Part shown: piece by piece, positions 6,046 to 33,800 of the stretch | Layout: each line of letters begins with the position of its first letter | Numbering within the stretch: position 1 is the stretch's first letter | Assembly (NCBI GenBank): GCA_000320545.1 | Contig: ADNK01002977.1 | Location: 1-37,230 of the forward strand | Length of the DNA: 37,230 nt | DNA from: Bigelowiella natans CCMP2755 | Taxonomy: Eukaryota; Protista; Cercozoa | Direction of reading: 5' to 3' | Position numbers and translations under genes: made by a program | Notes under the pieces: model-generated | The model's input: the letters and a program-made list of their open reading frames with translations, nothing else | Told to the model about the DNA's origin: nothing | Database searches by the model: none

Positions 6046-8411
6046 TATGAAAATGCTATTCATTCCCCTAAAATAATATAAATATACGAACTCTTTCATC
6101 GTTAGATTTCATTCCCAAAATAATATAAATATACGAACTCTTTCATCGTGAGATTTCTCCATAAGCTTTACGCTACAATCTCCCTCCAAGAAGCACAACA
6201 AAACCTTTTTTAAGGATGATAATCAGTAACGATCATGCAGGTAGTGAATCAGAGGTATGGAGTGCGTTATCCTAGTATTCGTCGTTGTTGTTGTCGGTGT
6301 AGCCTGTAAGTTTTTAAAGTGAATGAATAAATAATGACCCCTTTTTTTCCTGAGTAGGGGCTATTATCAAAGCAGTTTGAAAGCAGGATAGAAGAAGAAG
6401 AAGAAGAAGAAGAAGAAGACGCAGAATTTTTTAGTGTCTGCTGCTGCCCCTGCTGCTTCAACTCCTTCGGAATCTGAATACGTGCTTGCTCTTTCTCTTC
6501 TATTATTTCCTCCAGAGAAATGTTAGTAGAGACGGATGCCAGGACAGTGCCGCTCCAACCCTTATCCCTCCAAAATGCCCTTTTTTATATGAGTTTTAAG
6601 AGAAAGAAAGCAAAAATATGAGTGAGAAGTAGAACGAAGAGCTTCAAAAGAGTAGTGGGAGGAATAATGAAAAGTATAATTTATTTTAGGTTTATGGTCT
6701 ATTAATCTCATATTCATTCCCCTCCTCTTGTCGTCATTCAATATACCCCATCATCGTCTTTACAGTTTTATCGCATACTTCTCAACCATCACTCTACCTT
6801 GGAAAAATGGCCTGGAATTTAACCGAGTTACCCTGCAAACAGCAGTTACGTATTGTCGTTAGTCGTCTAGCAGATGCTTTATATGTGCTAAGTTTATGAA
6901 GTCTCTCTTAGAGTCACTACTACTACCACTACTACTACTACTACAAATCTACCACTCCTTCTACATACTACCATTGGAAGGCGCTGAAAAAGCTGTCGTT
7001 TATCATATGGTAGGGGCGGTTTGTAGATGATACCCAACCCTGTCGTAGGTGGTGGGCCAGTGACTATGGCATATTTAGCCCGAACAGTAAAGAAGGTGGT
7101 GGACGAAGATGGTGTTGGTAGTAGGGATGAAGAAGCTTCTTTTTCCACGCGAAATGTTATCCCTGATTCATCTTGGCGTATTTCGCGCACTGGAGATGAC
7201 AGATGGACTGTAGAGCCAAATGGTCTTTGAGACATGAGCTGAGACGCAATTTTCAGCGGGGGTGCTTGGGTACCTCTGTAATAGTTTAGTTAGCAGTGGA
7301 ATAATGAATGATGAGGGGGGTGATTGATCCGCAACGATCTTGCGATAATGATATATTCGTAGTATATCTACTACTCATTATTACCCCCTAACACGGTATT
7401 GCTGCTCATTTACTACTAGGTTCTCCAAGCCTCCAGCAGCTCGGATGTAGAACAGGATATGTAAGAATGAAACTACAGATGGGGATTGCGCGATCTAATT
7501 GCACCGAAAAAAGGATGAGCAGAGAAATTAGGAAACAGAAGCTTAGGATCGTGACTCAATGCATTTTTCTGGAGTAAATAATACTTTTTCTCATAATTTT
7601 TTGAATATACCATAGTCGTACAAAGTACAGCTAAGATAGTCCTAGACTCCCGCAGAGAAACTGTCGCATTGATCCATGTCTCGAATGTCATTGAGTCCCA
7701 TTCCACGGCCCCGGGAGAACTTTGTGGATTTTCTAAGTCCACAGAGGTTTGGAGTGTCTCCAAAATCTGGGCTGCATGTCTCAACTCATCCTGAACAGGA
7801 CTGGGAAGCTGCTGAAATCCGGATATAAGATCTGTGAAATTTTTCCTTCCCTCCGAAGTGAAAATCACTGAATTTCCGTCAGAGGGAGTGTATCCAGCAT
7901 CGAACACCTAAAAAGGTAAGATACGTCATAGAAATAAAACGAAGAGAAATATCTCATTTAAAGATGCATCTTTCTGCAAGTTATTGAACACCATCACTTG
8001 AAAATCTTGGGGGAAATAAATATCATTAAATGGTATTGCTTTCTTCAGCATGAAGGTGCAGACCTCAAATCCTAATTCTTCAACGACAAGACGCCAGCTG
8101 TGAGGTTGAACGGTTTTGTTCCCTAGCCACTGACCACCCAATTCGACAACATCATCATTAGCGACATCTGGTCTCTGAATCGATGTATCCCAGTTCTTTG
8201 TACGTCCCCCTGTTGTGTTCGAAGCCTCCAGTACCCGTACTGACAATCTGTGTCGAGTTGTAAGGAAGTGCGCGGCTGCCAATCCCGCATAACCGCCTCC
8301 CACAATAGCAACATCACATAAGATCTCCTCCTCAGCAAGAGATTTGACAGTAGATGAGGCTATCAAGCCGATGAAGAGGACAAGCGAAGCCATGCTGCAC
8401 TCCATCGTCAT
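4472..8411 (-). CDS. Flavin-containing amine oxidase (MAO-like) with a probable N-terminal signal peptide; about 13 exons
   Basis: DVAIVGGGYAGLAAA..VLEASNTTGGRT..VELGGQWLG; WDSMTFETW; VSFLHILFYIRAAGG; QRLPMGNSVK; AFWRDKGWSG; FNWAAQEHIGGAYSSYFPPG; GRIYWAG..GFGYINGAIESAERV; TAA at 4472. Confidence 0.92.
5775..5876. repeat. (GAT)n microsatellite in an amine oxidase intron
   Basis: Seen directly. It explains the poly-His/Ile ORF 5631..5990. Confidence 0.95.
6061..6157. repeat. ~47-bp tandem duplication spanning an exon end and 5' splice site
   Basis: aaaataatataaatatacgaactctttcatcgtKagatttc occurs twice. Confidence 0.95.
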
Positions 8412-8829
8412 GGTTGTCGATGAAAACGTAACAATGAGTCACTGAATAATCGTATGTATCGGTGACGACTATACACATCATGCGACAATGTATTGCCTAT
8501 TGTCTCTAACGGAAAACGTGTCAACTTACTTCCTTTAATTAGGGATTACATTAGGTGTTAATGATCAGACATGGAAAAAACTCTTAATGATGGTATAAGT
8601 CTTAGATCTAGTTTCCTAGTGCATTTGAAGGATAATTTGATCATGCGACAACATGCTAAACACAGCTACTAAATAACGAGTCAATACGGAACCGCGGAAT
8701 AAGGGTCGGAATGACACTTTGCCGAAGACAAGTTAGGAGTCATATGTACAAATTGGCCCCATTTTTATACATACGACAACAATATACTACTGAGAATACT
8801 AGGAATATCTGATTGAGGTTTCCCAACTC

Positions 8830-11392
8830 ATGGGGGCTCTTTGCTTCTGCTGCGTTGGGGAAGGGGGGCAGATTGACCGTGTCATGGACCGGTTTCCCCT
8901 TATTGCACTCTCCAAAGCTAAGATTGGGTTTGTTGTCAAGGCCGTTGGGTTAGTTCTCGCTGTGTTTGTGTTTATCAAATCGTCGTCGTACTATCTATCT
9001 ATCAACTTATCAATTCATTCGCATCCAATTATCTCAGGCATGTGTTGCCCGACCAGCTCTCAGGCGCATTAGTAGGCCCTGTGACCGGGAGGCCGTGTGT
9101 TTTCTATCACATTATCATTACAGAAAAATGGGTTGAAAGAAGCATGGTTAACAATCAGGTCGATCACTTCTCCAAATCATCATTCCGACACCGCATTGAC
9201 TACCATTTTCCTCTCTCTTGTCCGTAGGTCCAGGAGCGCAAAAGATCAAGGACTGTGGTGAACGAGAAGCGTTCTGTTGACTTTTGGATTTGCGATGGCA
9301 CCTCTAGAGCGTTTGTGCGCGGATCATTGCTAGCAAATATTCGAATTCGAACAGTCAACGTTCGCAAAGGAGGTGTCCCCTCTGCAGCACAAGCTTACTA
9401 CAACCGCGGTGCATTTGGTGGGGGAGCCAATCCGTATGGAAGAAACGCATATAATAGACGCGGACAGCCAATGTATATGGGTGCACCTCCCGTGGCAAGT
9501 CTGGGATTTTCCAGGATTCCAGGGCGACAGTATGAATCAGAGGAGAAGGTGATTGAGGTGAACGAAAAAGTCTCAGTTCTTGGCCACCTCGTCGATCAAA
9601 AAGCGTCACAAGGCGCGCTACCAACGATGATACCTCTGAGCAAACAAGCAATAACTGGAGAGTATATGGAAAAGAATGAGTGGACAGACTGGGACAAACG
9701 TTCATGGGCAGCGCTCACCAAAAGGTTGTAGTGAAGATTGTCGTCCAAATATGATCAGCATCAATATCATTGTAATAGACATTGTCACTTGCCAACTAAG
9801 TAGTATTTTTGGTATGATGGATGGTCAGAAGCCCTGTTGTGTTCGTTTCCAATCGCGATCGAGGTGTGAAAATGGTGCCAGTTCGTATGCCGCCCCCACC
9901 TCAGCTCACAGCCCAGCAACATCCACCACCATCTCACCAACAGCAGCAGCAGGTAGCAATAGACCGTTCTACTAATTGACAAGGATATATGTGTATTCTA
10001 AATATTCGCACAGTTTACTTTTTTTATCTCTTCATTTTGGACATTCAAGGATGTTCTGCTGTTCGTTGAATCAAGATTATTTTTACCTCACTTTGATAGC
10101 AACGTCGGGTTGAAAGCAAGGAGGTAAAATTGGGCAATATCGTTGTAATTCCAAGGGATAAAATCACAATGGGGAATGAGCTGGGCCGTGGTAACTTCGG
10201 GGTTGCATACCGAGCAACCTATAACGGTGGCACTGTCGTCGTGAAGGTTCGTCCATAATCACAAGGGAGATATGATGCCAGCAGATAATAATGGCGATGA
10301 ATTTTGTCTTATGACACATATTGCATTAACCTTTTATCTACTTCTGATCGTAGGTACCCAAGGTTGCCACTGAAGCAGATTTCCAAGAAATGGCAAGTTT
10401 CGCGCAAATAACAAATCATCCCAACGTTCTTACTCTTGTCGGAATGACGGATATTGATGGGAAAATGAGTTTTGTCACAGAGTTTTGTGCTCTAGGAAGG
10501 TTTACCTAATATTATGCGCGTCTACGATCCTGCACATTGCATGCTTCACAATCGCACAAATTTCTAATTATGTTCTATTTTTGCTATATTATTATCATAT
10601 CACATTATTATTAATAATATGTTATGCTTCACAGCTTAGATAGACTACACAATCGTAAGGATTTGAACATGCACACGGAGAGCGTTTTTTTGAGGATAGC
10701 TGGTGACGTTGGCAGGGGTCTCACTCATCTTCACAAGCTTGGAATTGTCCAAAGGGTCATTAATTTTCCACCTTGTGCTTTTACTGATGATGAAATATGG
10801 TTATAATGACATAGTTTTTCTCTTATCTACACAGGACATCGCCTGTCGCCACCTATTGATGGATCATGCAGGGAAAGTTTTGATTGCCGATTGGGGCCTT
10901 TCTCGTCGATTAAATAATGGAGTATACCAGCAAAATAACAGTGCTGTTGCTTGGCCGTGGGCTGCACCAGAGAGCTTGAAGACAGGGAGATTTACGCAGA
11001 AAACAGACATTTGGATGTTGGGTGTGACCTTCTTCGAGATTCTTTCCCAGGGGAAAGACCCATATGACTGGAGAAATTGCGACAGACGCATAGCGAGCAG
11101 AAACATTGTCGAGGGAAATCTCAAATTGGATGTTCCTACTGGTGCTCCTTATCTTCCTGGACAAATCATGACAGCTTGCCTAGCATTCAAGGCACGAGAA
11201 CGTCCCACTGCAGAACAAGTCGTCATGGCTGTGCAACAAAGAACTGTAACCGTTTTACAAATTTCAAAAAGCTCGTATGCTAACATTGGGGATCTAGAAC
11301 AAACAGGTTATGCCATTCCAGAGGACATCACGTATCAAAACGAGCAGAGACAAAAAGAAGGCCCTGAAGCTCCTTTACTAGAAAAACAATGA
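8830..11392 (+). CDS. Protein with an acylation-type N-terminus, a GIDE-like domain, a Pro/Gln linker and an atypical tyrosine-kinase-like domain; about 8 exons
   Basis: MGALCFCC; LVGPVTGRPCVFY..DFWICDGTSRAFV; LGRGNFGVAY..VVVK; HPNVLTLVG; VTEFCALGSL; IVQR|DIACRHLL..IADWGLSR; WPWAAPE; TDIWMLGVTFFE. Exon phases join both halves in frame. TGA ends at 11392. Confidence 0.85.
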
Positions 11393-12725: not shown

Positions 12726-14289
12726 ATGACCAAGACAGTCAGCGATTTGGAACCTGAACCTGTATGTTTCAAAAAGTTTTCACAGTGTAGTAACAACCCG
12801 ACTTGGGAGTTATCCAGAAATACTAGACTCAATTCTTATTAGTAAAAGCTGTTTCTGGTAGGAATGGAGAAGAAGAAACGGCTGGCATGCTCCAAATACA
12901 AGACAACAGATTATAGCTATCACTTTCATATTTGGAAATGCTGGTCTATTTTATGGTTTGGTGTTCCCTTTTAGACCTGAATCGATGTACAATATCTATT
13001 TGATCCCGTACACTATTCTGGTAACTTTTTTGCTCAATTGCAAACTTCGGTTCCGTGTTTTTCCGATTTCCGATCCTCATTAAGACATTTTTTATCTTTT
13101 TTACTTGTAGACTGGGATTTGCCTCTCACTATTCATTCACGTCGAAACAGTGGACCCCATCCGTAAATGGGAAACACAGGAAGAAAATAATTGTACAGCA
13201 ACCCCAACACGGTCTATGGTTTTAATATGATTTAAAGTCCTCCATTTTAACTGTTATAAATATCTTCGCTAGAATATGTCAGTATTGCAACCTGCCAAGA
13301 TCAATGAAAATTACAACAAAGCACTGTCACATCTGGTAATTATTCAAAATGGTACATCTTGTATTTGAATCAAGTTTTTGGTTATCAGCAACAAATGCGT
13401 ATCGCATTTCGATCACCACTGCCTATGGTTAAATACATGCATTGGGGCGAAGAACTATTGGCAATTCTTCTCTATGTTGTGTTGCATCGTGGCAATGCAA
13501 ATTCTTCACATTGTACTTGCATGCATAATTTATGCGAACGACAATACTGTTGGCATTGCAAATCGTCTTGTTGGAAACTTTGAAGCTTACGCAGGTGCTC
13601 AAGACATAATTGTAACTATTTTCTTCCTGAAGTTCGATATGTTAGCTATTCTCGGAATTTCTCTACTTGCTCCCGCCGTAGCGTTTGGGGCAGTTGGTTC
13701 CCTTCTTTCATTTCATATCTATATTAAACTAAAGGGAACAACAACGTAAGTGCACTTGGCATGTTTGTGCAGATTTGTCAAAAACAAATGCGTAACAACG
13801 CGTTTTTCTTAGTTATCTTTTCCTGAAAGGGAAAGATGTAATACAGGCTGAGTTTGACGCTGAAACACGAATAAAAAGATCGAAGGTAGCATGGAAGTTG
13901 CTATTTTAGTTGTAAAATGCACATTAATCATGGACCCTTTTAGTCACATGAACAAAAGATAGAGGAGCGTCGTGAAAGGGAGAGGCAACGGTGGTTAGAA
14001 GAACGGTAATAAATTAGATTAATTGTAATAATGTGGATCAATAAAGATGAATGTGTATCATCTTAGCGATAAGAGACGGAAACAAAAAGCTCTACAAGCT
14101 AACAATAATACAATACAGTTATCAAGTTTGGATCATTTTGAGAAAAAAGAGGGACCTAGTGGTGTCCGCACCATCGGTCCTTCTGATTTTCAGGATCATC
14201 ACAAATCTTCGTCCAGAGAGGTCGAATTCAGTGGGAAAGAAACTGGAGTATTTGCGGTACACCAAACTTCCTTCGATGATTCATCCTGA
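12726..14289 (+). CDS. DHHC-type protein S-palmitoyltransferase (ZDHHC1/11-like N-terminal motif); about 8 exons
   Basis: ATG at 12726; RRNGWHAP..QIIA; CQYC..TKHCHIC|NKCVSHFDHHCLWLNTCIGAKNY; transmembrane helices; SFHIYIKLKGTTT|YLFL; stop at 14289. Confidence 0.93.
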
Positions 14290-14559: not shown

Positions 14560-15560
14560 ATTCTACGAGATGTCACATGCAGTACGACCAGACTCGCCAC
14601 AAGACATGTGACTACTGTGGGAGGTCAGGACTAGGGGAGTGCAAGATGCCTGAGCCATGCGCAAGGCTGGCAGAATCTGAGGTGCTCTAGTGCTAGGACT
14701 ATAGACACAGTGTGTAAGACAGATGTAATTAATCAATGAAATTTGCTCAATAGTCATCCTTGTGTAGCTGTGCAATGCAGCGGCTACAGCGCTAACATTA
14801 AATCTGTTGGTTTCAGCCATGATGTGTTTCATGCAACTGAATGCAGTGCACATTGCATGCATCATGATTATAGACACAGTAATGGCACATGCAACATGCA
14901 TATTACATGTCTATTATCATGGACATCGGTGTAGAGCTACCCGACCGCACAAAATTTTAGTGGTCTTTGATGGCACTCTCGTTTCACTAGTTTAGTCGAG
15001 CAAACACCTCAAGACGCATCCTCTAGTGCTGGCTAGCTGGCGCACAGAGCAGCACAAGAGACATTGCATGCTGCTAACAGCTACTGTGCTGTCACTGACG
15101 CCTTTGTCTTGCACATCCAAACATGCATGCATTGCTAGATTGGCTGCAGCTGACATCTCTATAGATCTGCACATGTCTAGATGTAGCAGTAATGCAAGAC
15201 TAACAAACGTCTCATTGCTCTAATTCGGGTAACATAGCTGTATATCGCACGCATTTCAGCACTGCATTTAATGATCACTAAATGCGAAGTGCAGCACTTT
15301 GTATTGTAGTGACCGAGAATGACAAGGCAAATTTTACTTCATGTGATTCAAAACGATCGAATGCAACATAATTGGACAGCACATTCAACTAGTTTGCAAC
15401 AGATGGGCAAAATCGAATGTTTCACATGCATGATTGCTAGCTCTGAGCTAACTTGACTACGCTGCCTCATAATGAAATTTTCTGATGAAAAAACTCATTG
15501 CACTCTCACTTTGTGCTTGTTGCATCATTTAAAAAACGAACATGACTACTTGACTACACC
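14560..15560. other. Partially TpA-depleted, TG/CA-rich intergenic block 3
   Basis: Dense tgca, catg and ctag words. Many remaining TA are in CTA or TAG context. Confidence 0.7.
14705..14841 (+). repeat. Dispersed repeat, inverted copy of 22946-23082
   Basis: tgtagctgtgcaatgcagcggctacagcgctaa is identical in the reverse complement of the other copy, and the flanks align. Confidence 0.9.
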
Positions 15561-22679: not shown

Positions 22680-23416
22680 GCGTGCTGCATGGCAGTTGCT
22701 TAATTCGTTCGTTTGGCAATGGATGATGAGCAATGTGTACAAAATCAATTTGCATGCTCAACATGTTATTAGCATTATCAATGCACAGGGCTACGCTGGC
22801 AACAATAGACACAGTAATGTGACACACATTAGGATGACCATTGAAACAATTTGAACATTTCATTACATCCGTCTCACACATCATGCAATAATAGACACAG
22901 CAATACACAATATATATAATATATATTATATACATAGAGGACGCTTTCAATTGCATGAAGCACGTGGTGGCAGAAACCAACAGATGTAACATTAGCGCTG
23001 TAGCCGCTGCATTGCACAGCTACATCAGGATGACCATTGAAAAAATTTAATTCTTCATTACATCCGTCTCATACATAGTGTATTGCATGTCTATCATTGC
23101 ACACATTACATTGCGCATGTCCATCATGGCAAGGTAGCGATTCGTGTCATTGTATATATGTAGCATGGAATGTGCGAACACTCATGGGCGGGCCGCACAC
23201 GTGCAGTGCATCAGCTGCTTGTTGTGCCATCGCAGCACTCTGCCTGCTCAACCGGTACGTACAACAGAGAAATGATAGTCCATTATAGAAGTAAGATAAT
23301 CGAAACAAAACAATCCGATCGTATCGACGTCGGTAAACATTTCTGAACTTGCGCTCGCTGTAGAGTGTGCATCTGTCTCTAGATCTAGACACATTGATTA
23401 ACACATTGCATCCAGT

Positions 23417-23672: not shown

Positions 23673-24899
23673 TCAAAGTTCCTCTCTTGAAGTCGAAGGC
23701 AGCTCCAAAGCTTCGCCTTTCCACATTCCGTGGAGGTTGCAATAAGCGTAAGGTGTCACGAATTTGGATCCAGCCTTATGTATGCATGTGGTAATTAGGC
23801 AAGGTTTTGCACCAAATCTATGACTACAAGGTAGGGGGGGAATTCACTTCTCCTGGGCTGGATTACTGCATAATACCCAGAAATAATATGTTGTGATTTG
23901 TGTGCATTTAAACTGCAACGACAAATGTAGCTCTAAATTTTGAAAAAATGAGATAGTACTACCACCATCGAGAGGCGTATTGTATACTTAGGGGCCATCC
24001 CGTCTTGAAGAATCTGAAGTTTGTGGATAGAAAATGATGATTTTGTTTCGTGTTAGAGCGTGTCCAGGTCCAGAGGTGTGCACACTTTTCAACTCGGCAG
24101 TTGAATTTCAGTGGAGTCCAAAAAAAGGAGACTCTTTCGATGCGTGCGTGTGAACGAGTGAACGAACGAAGCAAACTCCAATGACAGTGAACGCAGCTGA
24201 AAGAAACGATCGTCGGAATTCTACTATGTGCGACGAGCGAATAAAGTAAACTTCCGAAAACAATACTACCTCAAGAGCAACGATCTTTCGGTTCTCGTTG
24301 AGCAGAATTAGGTGAGTCACCATGTGGTCGATATTTTTTGCCGCTGATGCCGTTTAAAAGAGGAACGTCAATTGCAATAAGTAATTTCTTCTGTTTTTGT
24401 AAGTATAAATTACCGTGATTCACAGAGATTTCTAGGTTGGAGCCAACAATTTTAATCATTGGAGCGTGAGTTCCAGCTGTTTGTAAAGCGTTGTTATTAT
24501 TGTTATTATTATTATTATTATCATTCACATCATTATTTTCTTCAGTCTTTGAGTTGTACTTACAGACGATGTTATCGTTGTTAGTAACAGTTACATATAT
24601 TGTCACTTAAATAACGATTTTGTTTGTGCACTTTTACCTTTTCCGGCCCACTTCCCTGGAAAATCCACAGAGAAGACATCGTAATCACTCTGCTTATGCA
24701 AAAATTTGTCACTGTCGGATATAAATACCGCATCTTCGCACGTCTACATATGCGTGTGTCTTGTTGGAAATTTGAGATTGAGCACAATGTCTACAACCTC
24801 TTGGAGTTGGTTTAGTCTTTCTCCTCCGATTACTTTTGGATTGGCGAATAGGAGGAGAGGAAGCAAGACCAATATTGGTACAACTCTATCGAACGACAT
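23673..24899 (-). CDS. Superoxide reductase / desulfoferrodoxin ferrous-site domain protein, about 165 aa, with signal peptide and C-terminal REEL; 6 exons
   Basis: Exons 24899-24798, 24743-24638, 24476-24414, 24343-24270, 24013-23963 (or 23966) and 23774-23673, all GT-AG and in phase. Translation: ..KWAGKAGTHAPMI..ISVNHAAKNIDHMVTHLIL..TPYAYCNLHGMWKG..REEL*. Confidence 0.85.
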
Positions 24900-26010
24900 T
24901 CTGGAAGATGTACATACAAAATTATACACGTATCACTCTTTCTTTTCATGTCTACAAACCTTGATATCGTAATTTTGGGCAAGCTTTTTCGAGAAAAGTG
25001 AGTATCGCCGCTACGTCAAACACGCCCGCTAGAAAGAGGTAATTGATTCTCCCCCTCTCTGCTTCGTCGTTCTTCGTCTTTGTTGTCTTCGAATCTCACA
25101 GGCAGAGATGAATCTCGAATCCGATGTAATTATATATTTCTACTTAATACACAGTAGATCCAATTATTACTCGGAAAATAACCCACCAAAAGAAGCCACC
25201 ATCATCAAAGTCAACCAGGGAAACCCGTAATCAACTTTGTCAAATGAAAGGGCTTCATTTTCATCGATTTTCTTACGGTGATTTCACCAAAACAGACTAC
25301 GACTCGTACATGTGCATTTTGTTGTTCGTTGTTGTCGTTCTTTGTTGTCGTTTGTCTCTCATATTGCTAAATAAAATAATACTCATGACACAACGAGCAG
25401 AGAGAGAAAAACGGATCAAGATCCAATTATTTCGCGCGCTTTTCCGTACTCCAAACAATTCGTTTTAAACTGATCGATGTTGCTGAATTTCTTCTCGGCA
25501 AAAGATAGATATTATAAGATTCTATTTGATTTGATGTAAAAGACTTGCTATTTTGGACAACAATCAAATAAAAATCAGCTTTGTCAGAAAACGAGAGTGG
25601 AAGGATCTCCATTGGATCTCTATTTAAAGGGAAAAGGCTTGGGATTTCTTCGGTCTACTCACCAAAAAGGAGACAAATAATGCCCAATCCGATTTCCGCA
25701 CTCATCAGAGTTTTCCGTGATGCGCTGTCCAGAAGGGCTTATAATTACATATAACGACAATGTCTACTATTGCGTCGCAGTTAAAAAGTACATATGTGTT
25801 TCCGTATTGAAATTTCAAAACAAAGCGACGCGTATACCAGTCTCTACGGTCACAATATGAATCTAATCAAGTTCAGAAGCATGAAAATATTGATGTCGCA
25901 ATCTAAAAAAGAGTCTGTTTCCATCACAGTTTTAAGTTTCTTCGCCAAAGAAACAAGCTGAAACTTGGTTTCAGCGCGAAGGCTCCAGACCAAAAAACCA
26001 TAGCACAACT

Positions 26011-29000
26011 ATGCAGTCGCCTGTCCTCGTCCTCAGTAATGGCCTAGTTTAGCATGATAGCTTCCGACCCCATTCCTAAAATTGTTGGCTATCCTAGTCA
26101 GATAGCTCATTTAAAAGTTTTGGGCAGGAATCACATATTTTTAGCGAGCGCGGTGTACCTGCCCAGATTACTAGTTGCGTGTTTTCTAGTTGTGTTTTCT
26201 TGTCACTTCTGTCGAGCGCCCTGACAGTACAACTTCAGAGTTCCACGACTATGTGTTTTCAGGATATTCTTCTTGTATTTGCGAATGTGCAACTAGAAGG
26301 AATAATTATATGACATAATTTATTACTTGAACAGACACAAATACGAAGCGAGAGCAAGGCCGCAAGGCTCAGCTGGGGAACATTGAAGCCGCAAAGGTTT
26401 GTGAGAAAATTGACTATTTGATTTTCATCTGATCAACTACTTTCATGCATAACATTGGAATGATTTCTCTGCAGGCTGTCGCGAGCATTATCCGTACCAC
26501 ATTAGGCCCTAGATCCATGCTTAAAATGATTCTTGACCCCATGGGCGGCCTTGTGATGACCAATGACGGAAATGCGATTTTGCGGGAGATTGATGTGTCT
26601 CATCCTGCCGCAAAGGTACACGCAGTAGCAACGACAGCTATAATACAGGCAGAATGAGAGAAACTCTAATGCGAATGAATCGTATCGTGGACTTCCTCCT
26701 GAGAATACGTGCTTGTTCTAATATAGAGTATGATCGAGTTGAGTCGAACCCAAGACGAAGAGGTTGGGGATGGAACGACATCTGTCATAGTATTGGGTGA
26801 GAAAATAATTTGAAGAATTGCGTTGATTATTATGTTGATCAATGCTCGAGTGTTGAAAATCCCACACTACCTACCTATACAGCGGGCGAAATGTTGACAG
26901 TTGCAAAGCCATTTCTCGAAGAAAACATGCACCCCCGAACAATTGTGGTATGTGAAAGTGTCTTGTATGTATCACACCATCGTCGTCATCATGATTCACT
27001 TCCACACCACCCTTTTTCCTCCTCCCCCCTCTAGATGTCGTACATCAAGGCGATGGATACTGCAATGGAAACTCTGGATAAAATTGCGGTGAAAGTTGAC
27101 CCTACGGATGAGAAAGAGATGATAAAAGTTATTCGCACTACTCTAGGTACAGCAGCAACAGCGTCGCTGGGGTTTTTCACCTTTTACTTTCAATGAAGAA
27201 TCAACATGACTATCGTGCCGCCCATTGGCAACATATCCATATGCATTGACACACTGCCCCCTCCCCCTTTGTGTTTAGGAACCAAATTCGTCAAGCGATT
27301 TGGAGATCTCATCCCCAAAATTGCCATCGAAGCGGTCCGCAAAGTTTCCGTCGAGGAGATGAAAACGAAGGTGATTGACATCAAGCGTTTCATCCGCGTG
27401 GAAAAGATTCCAGGTGGGATGCTGGAAGAGTCGGAAGTGCTCAACGGAATCGCCGTCTCCAAAGATGTTGTCAATCCGAACATGAGCCGACGAGTAGTCA
27501 ACCCCCGCATTGTTCTGCTTGACTGTCCCCTGGAGTATAAAAAGGGAGAGTCTCAGACGAACCTTGAATTCACTAAAGATATGGACTTTGAGCAAGGTTG
27601 CTATCATCATAACATACACATATAACAACATGTATGATGATCATCATCATCTAACACAATTCACATGATGCCACTTATGATCGCAATGAACAACACTAAT
27701 ACGCTAGCGACAAGCAAGACAAGAAATCTGATTGTAGTAGTGTATCAAGGCTGCTGCTGCTGCTGTATCCCTTCTGTTTTTTTTGCACTTATTCTTTGCA
27801 CTGATTTTTCTCTCCATGTAGCTCTTCGAATGGAAGAAGCATACATCCAGCAAATGTGTAAGGACATAATCAAAATGAAGCCAACCGTAGTCTGCACGGA
27901 GAAAGGTGTCTCTGATTACGCTCAGCACTTCCTGATAAAGGCTGGGATCTCTGTACTTCGCCGCTTAAGGAAGATGGACAACAACAGAATTGCAAGAGCA
28001 GTCGGTGCTACTATCATCAACGATCCTTCAGATCTCAAGGAGGAATATGTTGGCAAGAAATGCGGCCTATTTGAGATTCGAAAGATCGGTGATGAGTACT
28101 TCACTTACTTCGATCAGTGCAAAGAGCCAAAGGCGTGCTCCATCCTCCTCAGAGGGGCAGGAAAGGATGTGCTCAACGAAATCGAGAGGAATCTCCAAGA
28201 TGCAATGCATGTGGCCAGACAGTTACACATGGACCCTAGAGTCCTTCCTGGGGGGGGGGCTACCGAAATGGCAGTAGCGCAAGCTCTCATCAGAAAGGCC
28301 AAGACCATCAAAACCACCGAACAGAGGTACACCCATCATCACATATGTATATGGGAGGGGCAATCTGACAACAAACCTCATGACATCGTGATGATGATGA
28401 TGGTGATGATGATGATGATGATGATAGTGATGATAGTGATGGCAGGCTGCTCTCCTATCGTACTACTTTTGATGTGATGATGGTGGTGAGTTATAGCTGC
28501 TGCAACACCGTTCTCCTTATATATATGTAGTTATTATTACATACGATCGAGCCCTCTTACGTCGTGGTTGTTCCATACGATAGACTGCTCTTACGTACTT
28601 TTTCCTCCCTCTTACCTATGTTTTGTCCTTCGTTTTCTCTTCAAATAACAAGACCTTTCGAGGCTTTAGCTGCCGCATTTGAAGTGATCCCAAGAACTTT
28701 GATGGAGAACTGCGGATGCAAGATCATCAGGGTGATGACAGAGCTCAGGGCAAAGCACGCAGAAGGAAAAGAAATGTACTGGGGTGTTAATGGCAACACG
28801 GGTGAAATAGAAGACATGCGAAAGCTTGCAGTCCTTCAACCCATTAGTGTCAAAATGCAGACTTTGAAGACGGCGATCGAGGTGAGAATGATGAGAAAGG
28901 ATTGATATATTTATTACAGCAACTAATCATCATTTCGAAGAGCATTTTCTTACCATCATTTCTTTACATTTCGCATGAAAGCAACGATCATTCCAACAAC

Positions 29001-30844: not shown

Positions 30845-33800
30845 GGGGTTGGAGAGGATAGAGATGGAGAGATTGGGTAATTAGGAATCTACTACATTGG
30901 TAATGACGATATCATTAAGAATAGAAGACAGATCACTTAGTACAACCAACTCGCGAAGAAACAAGAGAGTGGGTGTTTCTTTCATTGAGAGTGAATGATC
31001 GATCGACCGATGACCTTGGCGATAAAGGAGTCGTTGTTGCCGTGTTGACCGATGATACTGGAGAGTAGTTTACTGATCGTGGTGTCCCCACCCCACCCTT
31101 CTCGGAAGTGCCGAGTAGCGTGACATCGAAGAGAGCGCACACGGGCTTGTGATCACTCTCTGTGACAGTGGATATACCTGATGATGACGGAAATAATAAT
31201 AAGAGGCAACATTTCATGAGATGCTATTTAAAGTAAGCTGACGGCATTAGAGATTGTTATTCTACGACTGACTTCTATAGAAGCGCTGCAAAACTGTGCA
31301 CACTCTTTGGTCACGCCACCTATGTGAGAAGAAGAACACAGAAGGAAAAGAATAATTAGGGGGTGAGCAGAGAAGAATAGCAAGATAATGACGACGAGCC
31401 AAGGCGCTGTTGTTACCATAGAATCCTATCACACCACGCAGGAACCCTCTTCTCATTATACGTGTTCGTTCCGACTTTAAACTTGAACGTTGGTGGGAAA
31501 TGGATAGGCCCCTGTGAGATGATGATTCACATTCATACCTCTCATTTCTTGATAATGGCTACACGATGTGTTTGTATATATATTCATATGGACACATCGC
31601 CGTTCCCAAACAGCACTTTTGTTGATAATGATAATAGACGAGACTACCTCTGTGAAGCGTAGAAACACTTTCCCCTCGGCACGTTGCTTGGTGAGTTGTT
31701 CGAACGATATTAGGCTAGACCAGTCGGCCTTCTCAATCAGCTTTTTCACTGTTGCGGTAGAGGAGGGAGGGGAGGAGGGGGGGGAGAGGTTTATAACTAA
31801 AAGAAGAGATGGATGTGCTATTTTGTACACTGATACAGAAGAAGAAAAAGATTGAGAGAAGTCTTGAGGAAGAAATCTCATGAATATATGTTCTTAAGGT
31901 AATATAGAAACAAACAAGCTGCTCTCCTCCCCATCTCCCTTCCCCCAACTTCTCTACTAACTACTACCTATGTTGGCGCCTTTGATATCGATACGATAGT
32001 TGAGGTCACCCATGCAGAATATGATCTCGTCAAGGCCGTGTTCCGACGGATCGACGCAAAAACGTCGCCATATCTGTGATGATAGGAACTCAGTTGGACG
32101 ATGACGATGATGATAATGACGATGACAATGATGATGACGATGACGACGACGAGGGTTGGTTGCTGCTCGTAAAATCATCAATCATCGAGAATTCATGAGT
32201 TGAGAAAGACTTCACTACTTCTCTCATGCATGGGAAACATACACTGAAAGTTCTCTTTGGGACGAGGAGAAGCATGGGAAATCAGTGGACAGTGTAAAAA
32301 GTAGCAGCAGCAGTAGTAGTAGTAGTAGTCGTCATCGTCGTTCTACTACTTTGTTTAAGTCTCGGTTGCGTGCCTCCACGTTCTGCTGGTGAGCTGTCAG
32401 ATGGCAATTTAGCACCATGAATCTAACACAACATTTATTATCACCGTGTAGTAGCAGGATGTGAGAAGAATTAGCTGCGCAACATATGATCACGAGACAA
32501 TAACGAAGACGAACAAATTTCATTGCACCCCCCCCCCCTTTCCCCATTTCACTTTCACCCTCCTCCTCCTCCTATACTGCTGCTGCTGCTGCTGCTTTCA
32601 TACCTATGACCATACACTCTGAACCTGGCTGCGACCGAGCCTTTGTTCCCACCAACGCCTATTTATCATGTTAAATATCAAATCGATTAGGATTAGAACG
32701 ATGGTTGCATGGTAAAGAGGGCTGCTGTTGCTGCCGCTGCTGCTGATGATGATGCTCGTGATGACGTTGATTGATGACACCAGCATGCACAGATGTCTGC
32801 CGCACTTGCTCACCACCCGTTGTTCTCTCTTTGCCAACACAAGAAATTTTAAAAAATGAGATAAAAATTGAAACTTCTCTCACCCATTACGCCGACGCCA
32901 ACGGTGTATTCATGGACCCCATCCATGTTAATAGCGACTTGCGCTGTCGCATAAACGAGCAGCAACATCCCGACAAGGTGCGTTTTAACGACTAGCCGAT
33001 AAGCCCCTAGCAAATAAGATGAATGAAATAACAACGATGATGATGATGATGATGATGATGATGACGATGATGATGACGGCCAACAATAGCAGTGAAGATA
33101 CTGATATGTACATGCATGCGATGACGCAATGAATGTGTGAGCAGGATAATGAAATTATACCTTTTGGCGCAGTAACCCTGAGAGCCTGTTCAATAGCTCG
33201 CTGCCAAGGCCGGGACACATCACGGTTTAGCAGCACCTCTCGTGCCTATTGTGCAAGCAGCAACAGCATGTGAGAGTAGATAATGATTCATGAAACAGGA
33301 GGAGGAGCAGAACAACTGGCACCACTACTTGTACTAATATTACTATTACTACCAAACTCTTCTCTACCTTGAGCTCTACGGTTTCTTGTAGACCTATGAT
33401 GTACAAGTCGGCTTGAAATCTTTGCCTCTCATCATCACCCCCCCCTCCATCCTCTATCCCAGCGCCGTTCATCGTGCTACTGCCGTCGTCCTCGTTTTGG
33501 CGATAATAGCCATTGTTATTTCTACTTTTTCCATCGCCCTCGCCTCCTCCCTTCGTATCAGCATTGTAGTAGGTTCTGCTCCCTGCTGTACCACTCTCAC
33601 CACTCAACCACAGCTCCAAAGCTTTCCTCGACGGTATTTGCGCATTGCAATTCCACGTCGCGGAAAAGACCGTCAGGTTTTTATTTTCCTTGGCCATGGG
33701 AACAGGGACAAAAGAACGCGATATCTGTAGGTATTATCACCGTCATCGATTGATTATTAATTACCAACAGAGTGTAGTATAAGGGATGATACGGTAGGAT

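Follow-up and report, generated by a model that had tools for sequence, protein, structure and literature searches.

The gene described here lies on the minus strand of a 37,230-nt stretch of DNA from the chlorarachniophyte Bigelowiella natans, hereafter called the window. Its 147-aa product, P0001, is predicted to be an ER-addressed, single-domain member of an exported superoxide reductase (SOR) clade that also comprises bacterial twin-arginine (Tat) proteins, tandem arrays and membrane-anchored forms. Our main reading, to which we assign a probability of about 0.5, is that P0001 acts as a one-iron SOR of the ER lumen, reducing superoxide to H2O2, and that it is re-reduced through a membrane wire of the cytochrome b561/DOMON type and not by rubredoxin.

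Gene structure and expression

The SOR-like gene is real, spliced and expressed. The same six introns, all GT..AG on the minus strand, are missing from the contigs of all six contig runs, which come from six studies; since the precise loss of six GT..AG segments is expected from spliced RNA, these runs were taken as such. The full transcript lies inside one contig in two of the six. A run of raw reads, X21, covers mostly the 3' end of the transcript, with 1 read across the last joint. The features of the gene are as follows.

24960..25120, minus strand: non-coding first exon (5' UTR); RNA contigs reach 25077-25120, the 5' end being inexact
24901..24959, minus strand: 5'-UTR intron of 59 nt, GT..AG, with its joint in 6/6 contig runs
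ATG at 24899 to TGA at 23673-23675, minus strand: ORF of the SOR-like gene
24798..24899, minus strand: coding exon 1, aa 1-34, with the predicted signal peptide and helix 26-34
24825..24899, minus strand: predicted signal peptide, covering roughly aa 1-25, with cleavage judged by eye to follow Ala19 or Gly25
24638..24689, minus strand: coding exon 2, aa 35-52, with the family loop P-G-x-W-x-G-K (Lys51 at 24639-24641)
24414..24476, minus strand: coding exon 3, with His55 (24466-24468) and His72 (24415-24417)
24270..24343, minus strand: coding exon 4, with His79 (24324-24326)
23963..24013, minus strand: coding exon 5, aa 98-114, seen in contigs
23673..23774, minus strand: coding part of exon 6, with Cys126 (23739-23741), His129 (23730-23732), REEL (23676-23687) and the stop TGA
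24690-24797, 24477-24637, 24344-24413, 24014-24269 and 23775-23962, minus strand: the five coding introns, from contigs of 6/6 runs
24014..24196, minus strand: segment of intron 4 that a minor isoform retains; joint in X2 and X3, product on record as P0004
23479..23672, minus strand: 3' UTR, reaching at least to 23479 in contigs

The first-pass annotation, made from the letters alone, had proposed six GT-AG coding exons. The contigs of all six runs skip the introns between them, and the transcripts agree with that model in splicing, start and end; the non-coding first exon is an addition. The leader (24960-25113) holds an in-frame stop upstream of the ATG and no upstream ATG, and the spliced product, compared by eye, matches the public transcriptome protein P0001. 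A minor alternative acceptor at 24196 gives the joint 24196-24270 in two of the six contig runs (X2 and X3); the resulting isoform, P0004, is truncated, its frame reaching a stop before the Cys ligand. A longer public model, P0002 (label jgi/Bigna1/82114), was set aside, as its 18-residue insert after exon 1 occurs in no contig of the six runs. RNA reads and one contig were also found at 23300-23405, past a microsatellite downstream of the 3' UTR; either the 3' end extends further than mapped here or another transcript lies there.

Within the window, no functional link was seen between the SOR-like gene and the genes adjoining it. A spliced and expressed gene for a TCP-1/CCT chaperonin subunit (25964-28902, plus strand) is divergent from it, the observed transcript starts being about 850 bases apart. 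A dispersed inverted repeat of 110 nt, 85% complementary (14735-14844 and 22943-23052), is probably a small non-coding repeat element present twice. Other exons recognized in the window are the following.

7929-8438, minus strand: flavin amine oxidase exon
10700-11389, plus strand: protein kinase exon
13369-13746, plus strand: DHHC palmitoyltransferase exon
33230-33733, minus strand: exon weakly matching the Exo_endo_phos2 phosphatase family

A divergent SOR domain with an intact ligand set

Profile searches matched P0001 to the SOR centre II domain of Pfam (PF01880) with 30.1 bits, against a curated cut-off of 22.2, while its scores stayed far below the NCBIfam cut-offs (20 vs 61.9 for TIGR00332 and 21.9 vs 146.9 for TIGR00320). 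The five ligands H55, H72, H79, C126 and H129 stand in register with those of centre II, so that the His4-Cys set read earlier from the letters is present in full. C126 is the sole Cys of the protein, and the N-terminal Cys4 desulforedoxin centre of the 2Fe SORs is therefore absent. A structure model built from a 44-sequence alignment reached a mean pLDDT of 88.5, and all of the 22 best rows listed by Foldseek were SORs, with a best E of 5.5e-8 and an rmsd of 1.8 over 88 columns. The SORs in these rows come from Desulfoarculus, Treponema, Desulfovibrio, Ignicoccus, Nanoarchaeum, Giardia, Pyrococcus, Archaeoglobus and Thermotoga. P0001 is thus predicted to adopt the SOR beta-sandwich fold, and the domain assignment of the first-pass annotation stands on both the Pfam score and the modelled structure. 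ESM Atlas feature matches for P0001 all remained below 0.9 and are leads only. Canonical SORs are homo-oligomers, either dimers or tetramers.

The site is conserved well beyond P0001. The search of representative sequences gave 237 domains, of which 198 have all five ligands, as does every one of the 79 genome loci with a usable domain; the Pro at +2 from the first His was retained in 228 of the 237.

The loop ahead of the first histidine

Directly ahead of H55, P0001 carries G53-T54, and the canonical E-K is absent. The substitution had been spotted in the first-pass annotation, where it was taken to hint at an altered role; the first part of this observation is correct, and the second loses its ground once the relatives are considered. 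Among 425 aligned domains, E-K precedes the first His in all 73 canonical matches, and the P0001 family shows a W-x-G-K-x-x-x-H loop in its place, with a Glu at -2 from the first His in only 18 of 224 family domains. Of the 79 usable genome loci, 40, all bacterial and all keeping the five ligands, have a loop of the W-x-G-K type. Since this loop is clade-wide and common to bacterial Tat-exported SORs, the change from EK to GT is not special to the B. natans gene. A twin-arginine pattern was detected in 36/40 W-x-G-K loci vs 1/38 EK loci, an association partly favoured by the search itself because the loci were chosen by patterns from a Tat-bearing alignment. The K-A-G-T-H of P0001 recurs letter for letter in the bacterial protein P0182, and, aligned on G-x-W-x-G, the P0001 loop is two residues longer than that of the Pyrococcus SOR.

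Natural SORs without the Glu or without the Lys are known, as the PDB titles of the Ignicoccus mutants E23A and T24K indicate, and the Nanoarchaeum SOR is reportedly an enzyme without one residue of the pair. These enzymes reportedly stay active. The possibility that Lys51, at -4, stands in for the canonical Lys was considered and is not supported. Raw counts over 224 domains (18 with Lys at both -4 and -1, 86 only at -4, 79 only at -1, 41 at neither) look mutually exclusive, in line with compensation; a tree-aware pair test gave no support (median p 1), and archaeal EK proteins also carry a Lys at -4. As a separate observation, C-x-x-H-D replaces C-x-x-H-G in most bacterial Tat-type members (L001-L040), and in 37 of the 79 loci overall.

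A broadly distributed family

A word-indexed search with P0001 returned only 4 near-identical proteins, and the wider family surfaced only with HMMER, which, over 1.84 billion representative sequences, yielded 236 clusters at E<=0.001. With clusters from several protist groups, the family is not "sporadic in protists", as had initially been stated. The matches studied are the 148 listed out of 236, the two records of the gene itself being left out. Species names obtained for 10 of 30 matches looked up were Amorphochlora amoebiformis, Gambierdiscus australes, Biecheleria cincta, Rhizosolenia setigera, Bicosta minor, Diplonema papillatum (two matches), Artemidia motanka, Lacrimia lanifica and Flectonema neradi; Monosiga brevicollis is also among the organisms of the family. 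We take these relatives to include a chlorarachniophyte, dinoflagellates, a diatom, choanoflagellates and diplonemids. Bacterial members belong to Planctomycetota, Desulfobulbaceae, Bacteroidota, Campylobacterota and Pseudomonadota, among others.

Phylogenetic analysis of 78 rows and 97 columns placed P0001 in a clade with P0003, P0153 and P0156 (support 100/93), while the split between the exported clade and the canonical EK proteins was weakly supported (90/62). The eukaryotic members may have one origin or several: the free tree needs 5 changes, and an AU test of 34 vs 44 rows (97 columns, LG+G4) does not reject their forming a single clade (p 0.144).

Crude rules applied to the 148 listed matches assigned a signal-like start to 47, a twin-arginine leader to 36 and neither to 65, many of these last being fragments; the twin-arginine rule mislabelled at least four eukaryote-like proteins (P0022, P0046, P0058 and P0110). 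The family is not wholly exported, since the Monosiga proteins P0186 and P0188 lack a leader. Another eukaryotic relative, P0197, begins with a signal-like stretch; together with the long segment after it, rich in Ser, Ala and Pro, this looks like a bipartite plastid leader. Of 80 genome loci, the first 40 were examined for a widespread conserved neighbour gene and none was found, the commonest occurring in 7 loci. These 7 all belong to Desulfobulbaceae or cable bacteria, and the gene that comes next there encodes about 600-650 aa.

The SOR-like family is large, widespread in marine protists and, apparently, undescribed. In standard teaching, SORs belong to the cytoplasm of anaerobes. A census of 2011 counted 3 eukaryotic genes among 325 (PMC3116461), and a phytoplankton survey of 2023 notes SOR genes for two diatoms and a haptophyte, as unconfirmed (PMC10128935). 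Full-text literature searches, at the level of titles and abstract starts, found no secreted or ER eukaryotic SOR, although subscription reviews may mention one, and no text pairing desulfoferrodoxin with DOMON, desulfoferrodoxin with dinoflagellate or superoxide reductase with Monosiga.

Addressing to the ER

P0001 is predicted to enter the ER lumen and to stay there. Its N-terminus, with a hydropathy peak of 3.3 over 9 residues, and its REEL end, which fits the PROSITE pattern [KRHQSA]-[DENQ]-E-L (as given in PMC2140024), agree with the hydrophobic start and ER-type tail proposed in the first-pass annotation; no twin-arginine motif occurs in the leader. Both signals recur in the homologues. 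P0153 (46% identity to P0001) and P0156 from Amorphochlora (37%) also have hydrophobic N-termini, and the tails of the clade read REEL in P0001 and in the N-terminally short P0003, HEEL in P0153 and HDEL in P0156. Because these tails vary yet stay within the retrieval pattern, ER addressing looks to be under selection, as judged from sequence comparison.

Beyond this clade, -EL ends were found in 13 of the 148 listed matches, against 0.66 expected from the internal frequency (p 2e-13, for matches that are not independent). His stands at -4 in 6 of these 13 tails; 4 fit the strict PROSITE pattern and 10 a relaxed rule drawn from PMC2140024. By eye, ten of the 13 proteins start with a signal-like segment and two have none visible; the thirteenth is a fragment whose full-length cluster member has a signal-like start.

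An alternative is that P0001 passes through the ER to act as an SOR in vesicles or on the cell surface, with REEL as a weak retrieval signal. A hydrophobic C-terminus resembling a GPI signal or membrane anchor was indeed detected by a crude rule in 16 of the 148 listed relatives, and some tails matching the PROSITE pattern retain poorly in human cells according to PMC2140024, in whose main text REEL itself was not found. We nevertheless consider a surface or vesicle protein improbable, for REEL, HEEL and HDEL are kept across one clade, and HDEL is also the tail of the ER Hsp70 of B. natans. In this alga, the Hsp70 and Hsp90 proteins that bear signal peptides have HDEL and KDEL as their last four residues (PMC3542566).

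The signal peptide might also open a bipartite leader that directs P0001 into the plastid or the periplastid compartment. Ferredoxin or rubredoxin might reduce it there, which would solve the question of its donor. In this group, a signal peptide stands at the start of plastid and periplastid proteins, and PMC3542566 describes their sorting as poorly understood. Between the hydrophobic core and the domain, P0001 has 20 residues, net acidic and holding helix 26-34; among the three members of the clade whose N-terminus is intact, this segment measures 16-21 residues, is acidic in two and contains the conserved helix. So short an acidic, helix-bearing segment leaves little room for a transit peptide. 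Tails of the xxEL type are moreover present in relatives such as Bicosta, which we take to belong to a group without plastids, and a plastid destination is the least probable of the alternatives weighed here.

Domain fusions and the source of electrons

An ER-lumen SOR would need an electron donor, as SORs depend on an outside reductant, usually rubredoxin (PMC11638306). P0001 itself carries neither DOMON nor cytochrome b561. Its relatives were surveyed in 40 long matches picked by hand, where DOMON and/or cytochrome b561 were found in 11 proteins and neither in 29: DOMON occurs in 9 (8 above the cut-off) and b561 in 4 (all above). The same 40 yielded fusions to cytochrome b5 (4 proteins), nucleotide cyclase (3) and Reeler (1), and a looser scan of 9 of them also picked up b561, weakly, in two proteins that carry a cyclase. 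The minimal layout, signal-SOR-DOMON-b561, is that of P0119, with M212/H305 and H342/H374/H403/H444 as candidate haem ligands; this protein groups with two ER-tailed proteins (support 99/92).

According to PMC10784552, the DOMON-b561 proteins of plants act as ferric reductases, taking electrons from ascorbate in the cytosol and handing them to acceptors outside. Given this activity and the fusions seen in the relatives, a b561/DOMON-type membrane wire is, by analogy, the likely donor of electrons to P0001. The same ferric reductase activity favours a role in iron handling equally.

Several fusions have elaborate layouts. In P0006, P0067, P0070 and P0110, all very long, tandem SOR-like domains precede DOMON and/or b561 and cytochrome b5; three of the four have an adenylate/guanylate cyclase, and three bear diplonemid names. 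Their layout makes them candidates for a trans-membrane redox sensor in one chain. P0005, P0008 (from the dinoflagellate Biecheleria) and P0025 combine 4-8 SOR-like domains with ephrin-receptor-like Cys repeats and at least 7 predicted membrane helices, and appear receptor-like. Single fusions, which may be gene-model chimeras, were noted in P0137 (deiodinase-like), P0075 (UbiE methyltransferase), P0060 (phosphogluconolactonase-like) and P0149 (Mpo1-like).

Proposed role

We infer the ER residence, the iron loading, the use of superoxide as substrate and the donor of P0001. In the preferred reading, the protein would enter the ER co-translationally, be retrieved there through REEL and load one iron at its His4-Cys site; it would then reduce lumenal superoxide to H2O2 and be re-reduced through a b561/DOMON protein or by ascorbate.

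The domain could instead be an iron-binding or relay module of the secretory pathway, in which surface arrays would capture ferric iron, a fused b561 would reduce it, the ER copy would buffer or deliver lumenal iron, and superoxide reduction would be incidental. Copy numbers suit an array rather than an enzyme: 58 of the 148 listed matches have one domain, 90 two or more and 22 four or more. DOMON and b561 are parts of known ferric reductases (PMC10784552), and the canonical Glu and Lys are missing. The Reeler domain, fused in one relative, is tied to the SDR2/FRRS1 ferric reductases and would be another such part. A His4-Cys site, on the other hand, is better suited to holding a catalytic iron in place than to exchanging it, and the exact five-coordinate SOR set is retained along with its Pro; no iron-response data were found. 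Overall, iron capture and relay seems unlikely, although it is the strongest of the alternatives.

Still less probable is a non-catalytic redox or metal sensor, possibly binding a metal other than iron. The SOR-like domains placed upstream of cytochrome b5 and nucleotide cyclase in 3 of the 40 long matches, and the ephrin-receptor-like repeats with several membrane helices of other relatives, would suit signalling; P0001, a lone soluble domain, has no output module, and we hold the sensor function to be very improbable for it.

On a larger scale, aerobic marine protists of several supergroups may run an extracytoplasmic SOR system, whose domains would reside in the ER, be anchored at the surface or be arrayed up to ten times on DOMON-b561, some of them with b5 and cyclase. 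Superoxide would be removed reductively and, in some lineages, signalled as cyclic nucleotide, the B. natans gene encoding the ER-lumen member. This broader picture is tentative, with the odds somewhat against it.

Phytoplankton release extracellular superoxide. An expressed, intron-rich, ER-addressed SOR-like gene in an oxygen-producing alga, together with the candidate electron wire of its family, would add extra-cytosolic superoxide or iron handling, and bears on how phytoplankton control extracellular superoxide. Because P0001 is small and single-domain, the question of its role is directly testable.

Comparison with known systems

CYBDOM proteins (DOMON plus cytochrome b561), such as Arabidopsis CRR and animal SDR2, correspond to the unit that relatives of P0001 carry behind their SOR-like domains. 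They are not described with an SOR domain in the consulted part of PMC10784552, and P0001 differs from them in having neither of the two modules.

The SOR of Giardia and other diplomonads belongs to microaerophilic parasites and is attributed to lateral acquisition replacing SOD; the SOR set of PMC6934886 comprised only Fornicata and prokaryotes. The Giardia enzyme (PDB 4d7p) is, like P0001, a eukaryotic one-iron SOR domain, with a weak sequence match (E 0.25).

With the one-iron SORs in general (neelaredoxin; centre II; PDB 4brv/4bk8, 1do6 and 4d7p; centre II of 1y07, 1dfx and 2ji1), P0001 shares the predicted fold, the His4-Cys site, the C-x-x-H-G-x-W end and the absence of a desulforedoxin domain, at 15-28% identity to SOR structures in structural alignments. 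In contrast to them, it has a predicted signal peptide, an xxEL tail and no EK.

The TAT-SOR class of SORGOdb comprises seven bacterial SORs predicted to be Tat-exported (PMC3116461) and, as predicted for P0001, consists of an exported single centre-II domain. The loop of P0001 is shared with genome loci bearing the Tat pattern, to which this comparison applies, whereas its predicted eukaryotic signal peptide and its ER tail set the B. natans protein apart from this class.
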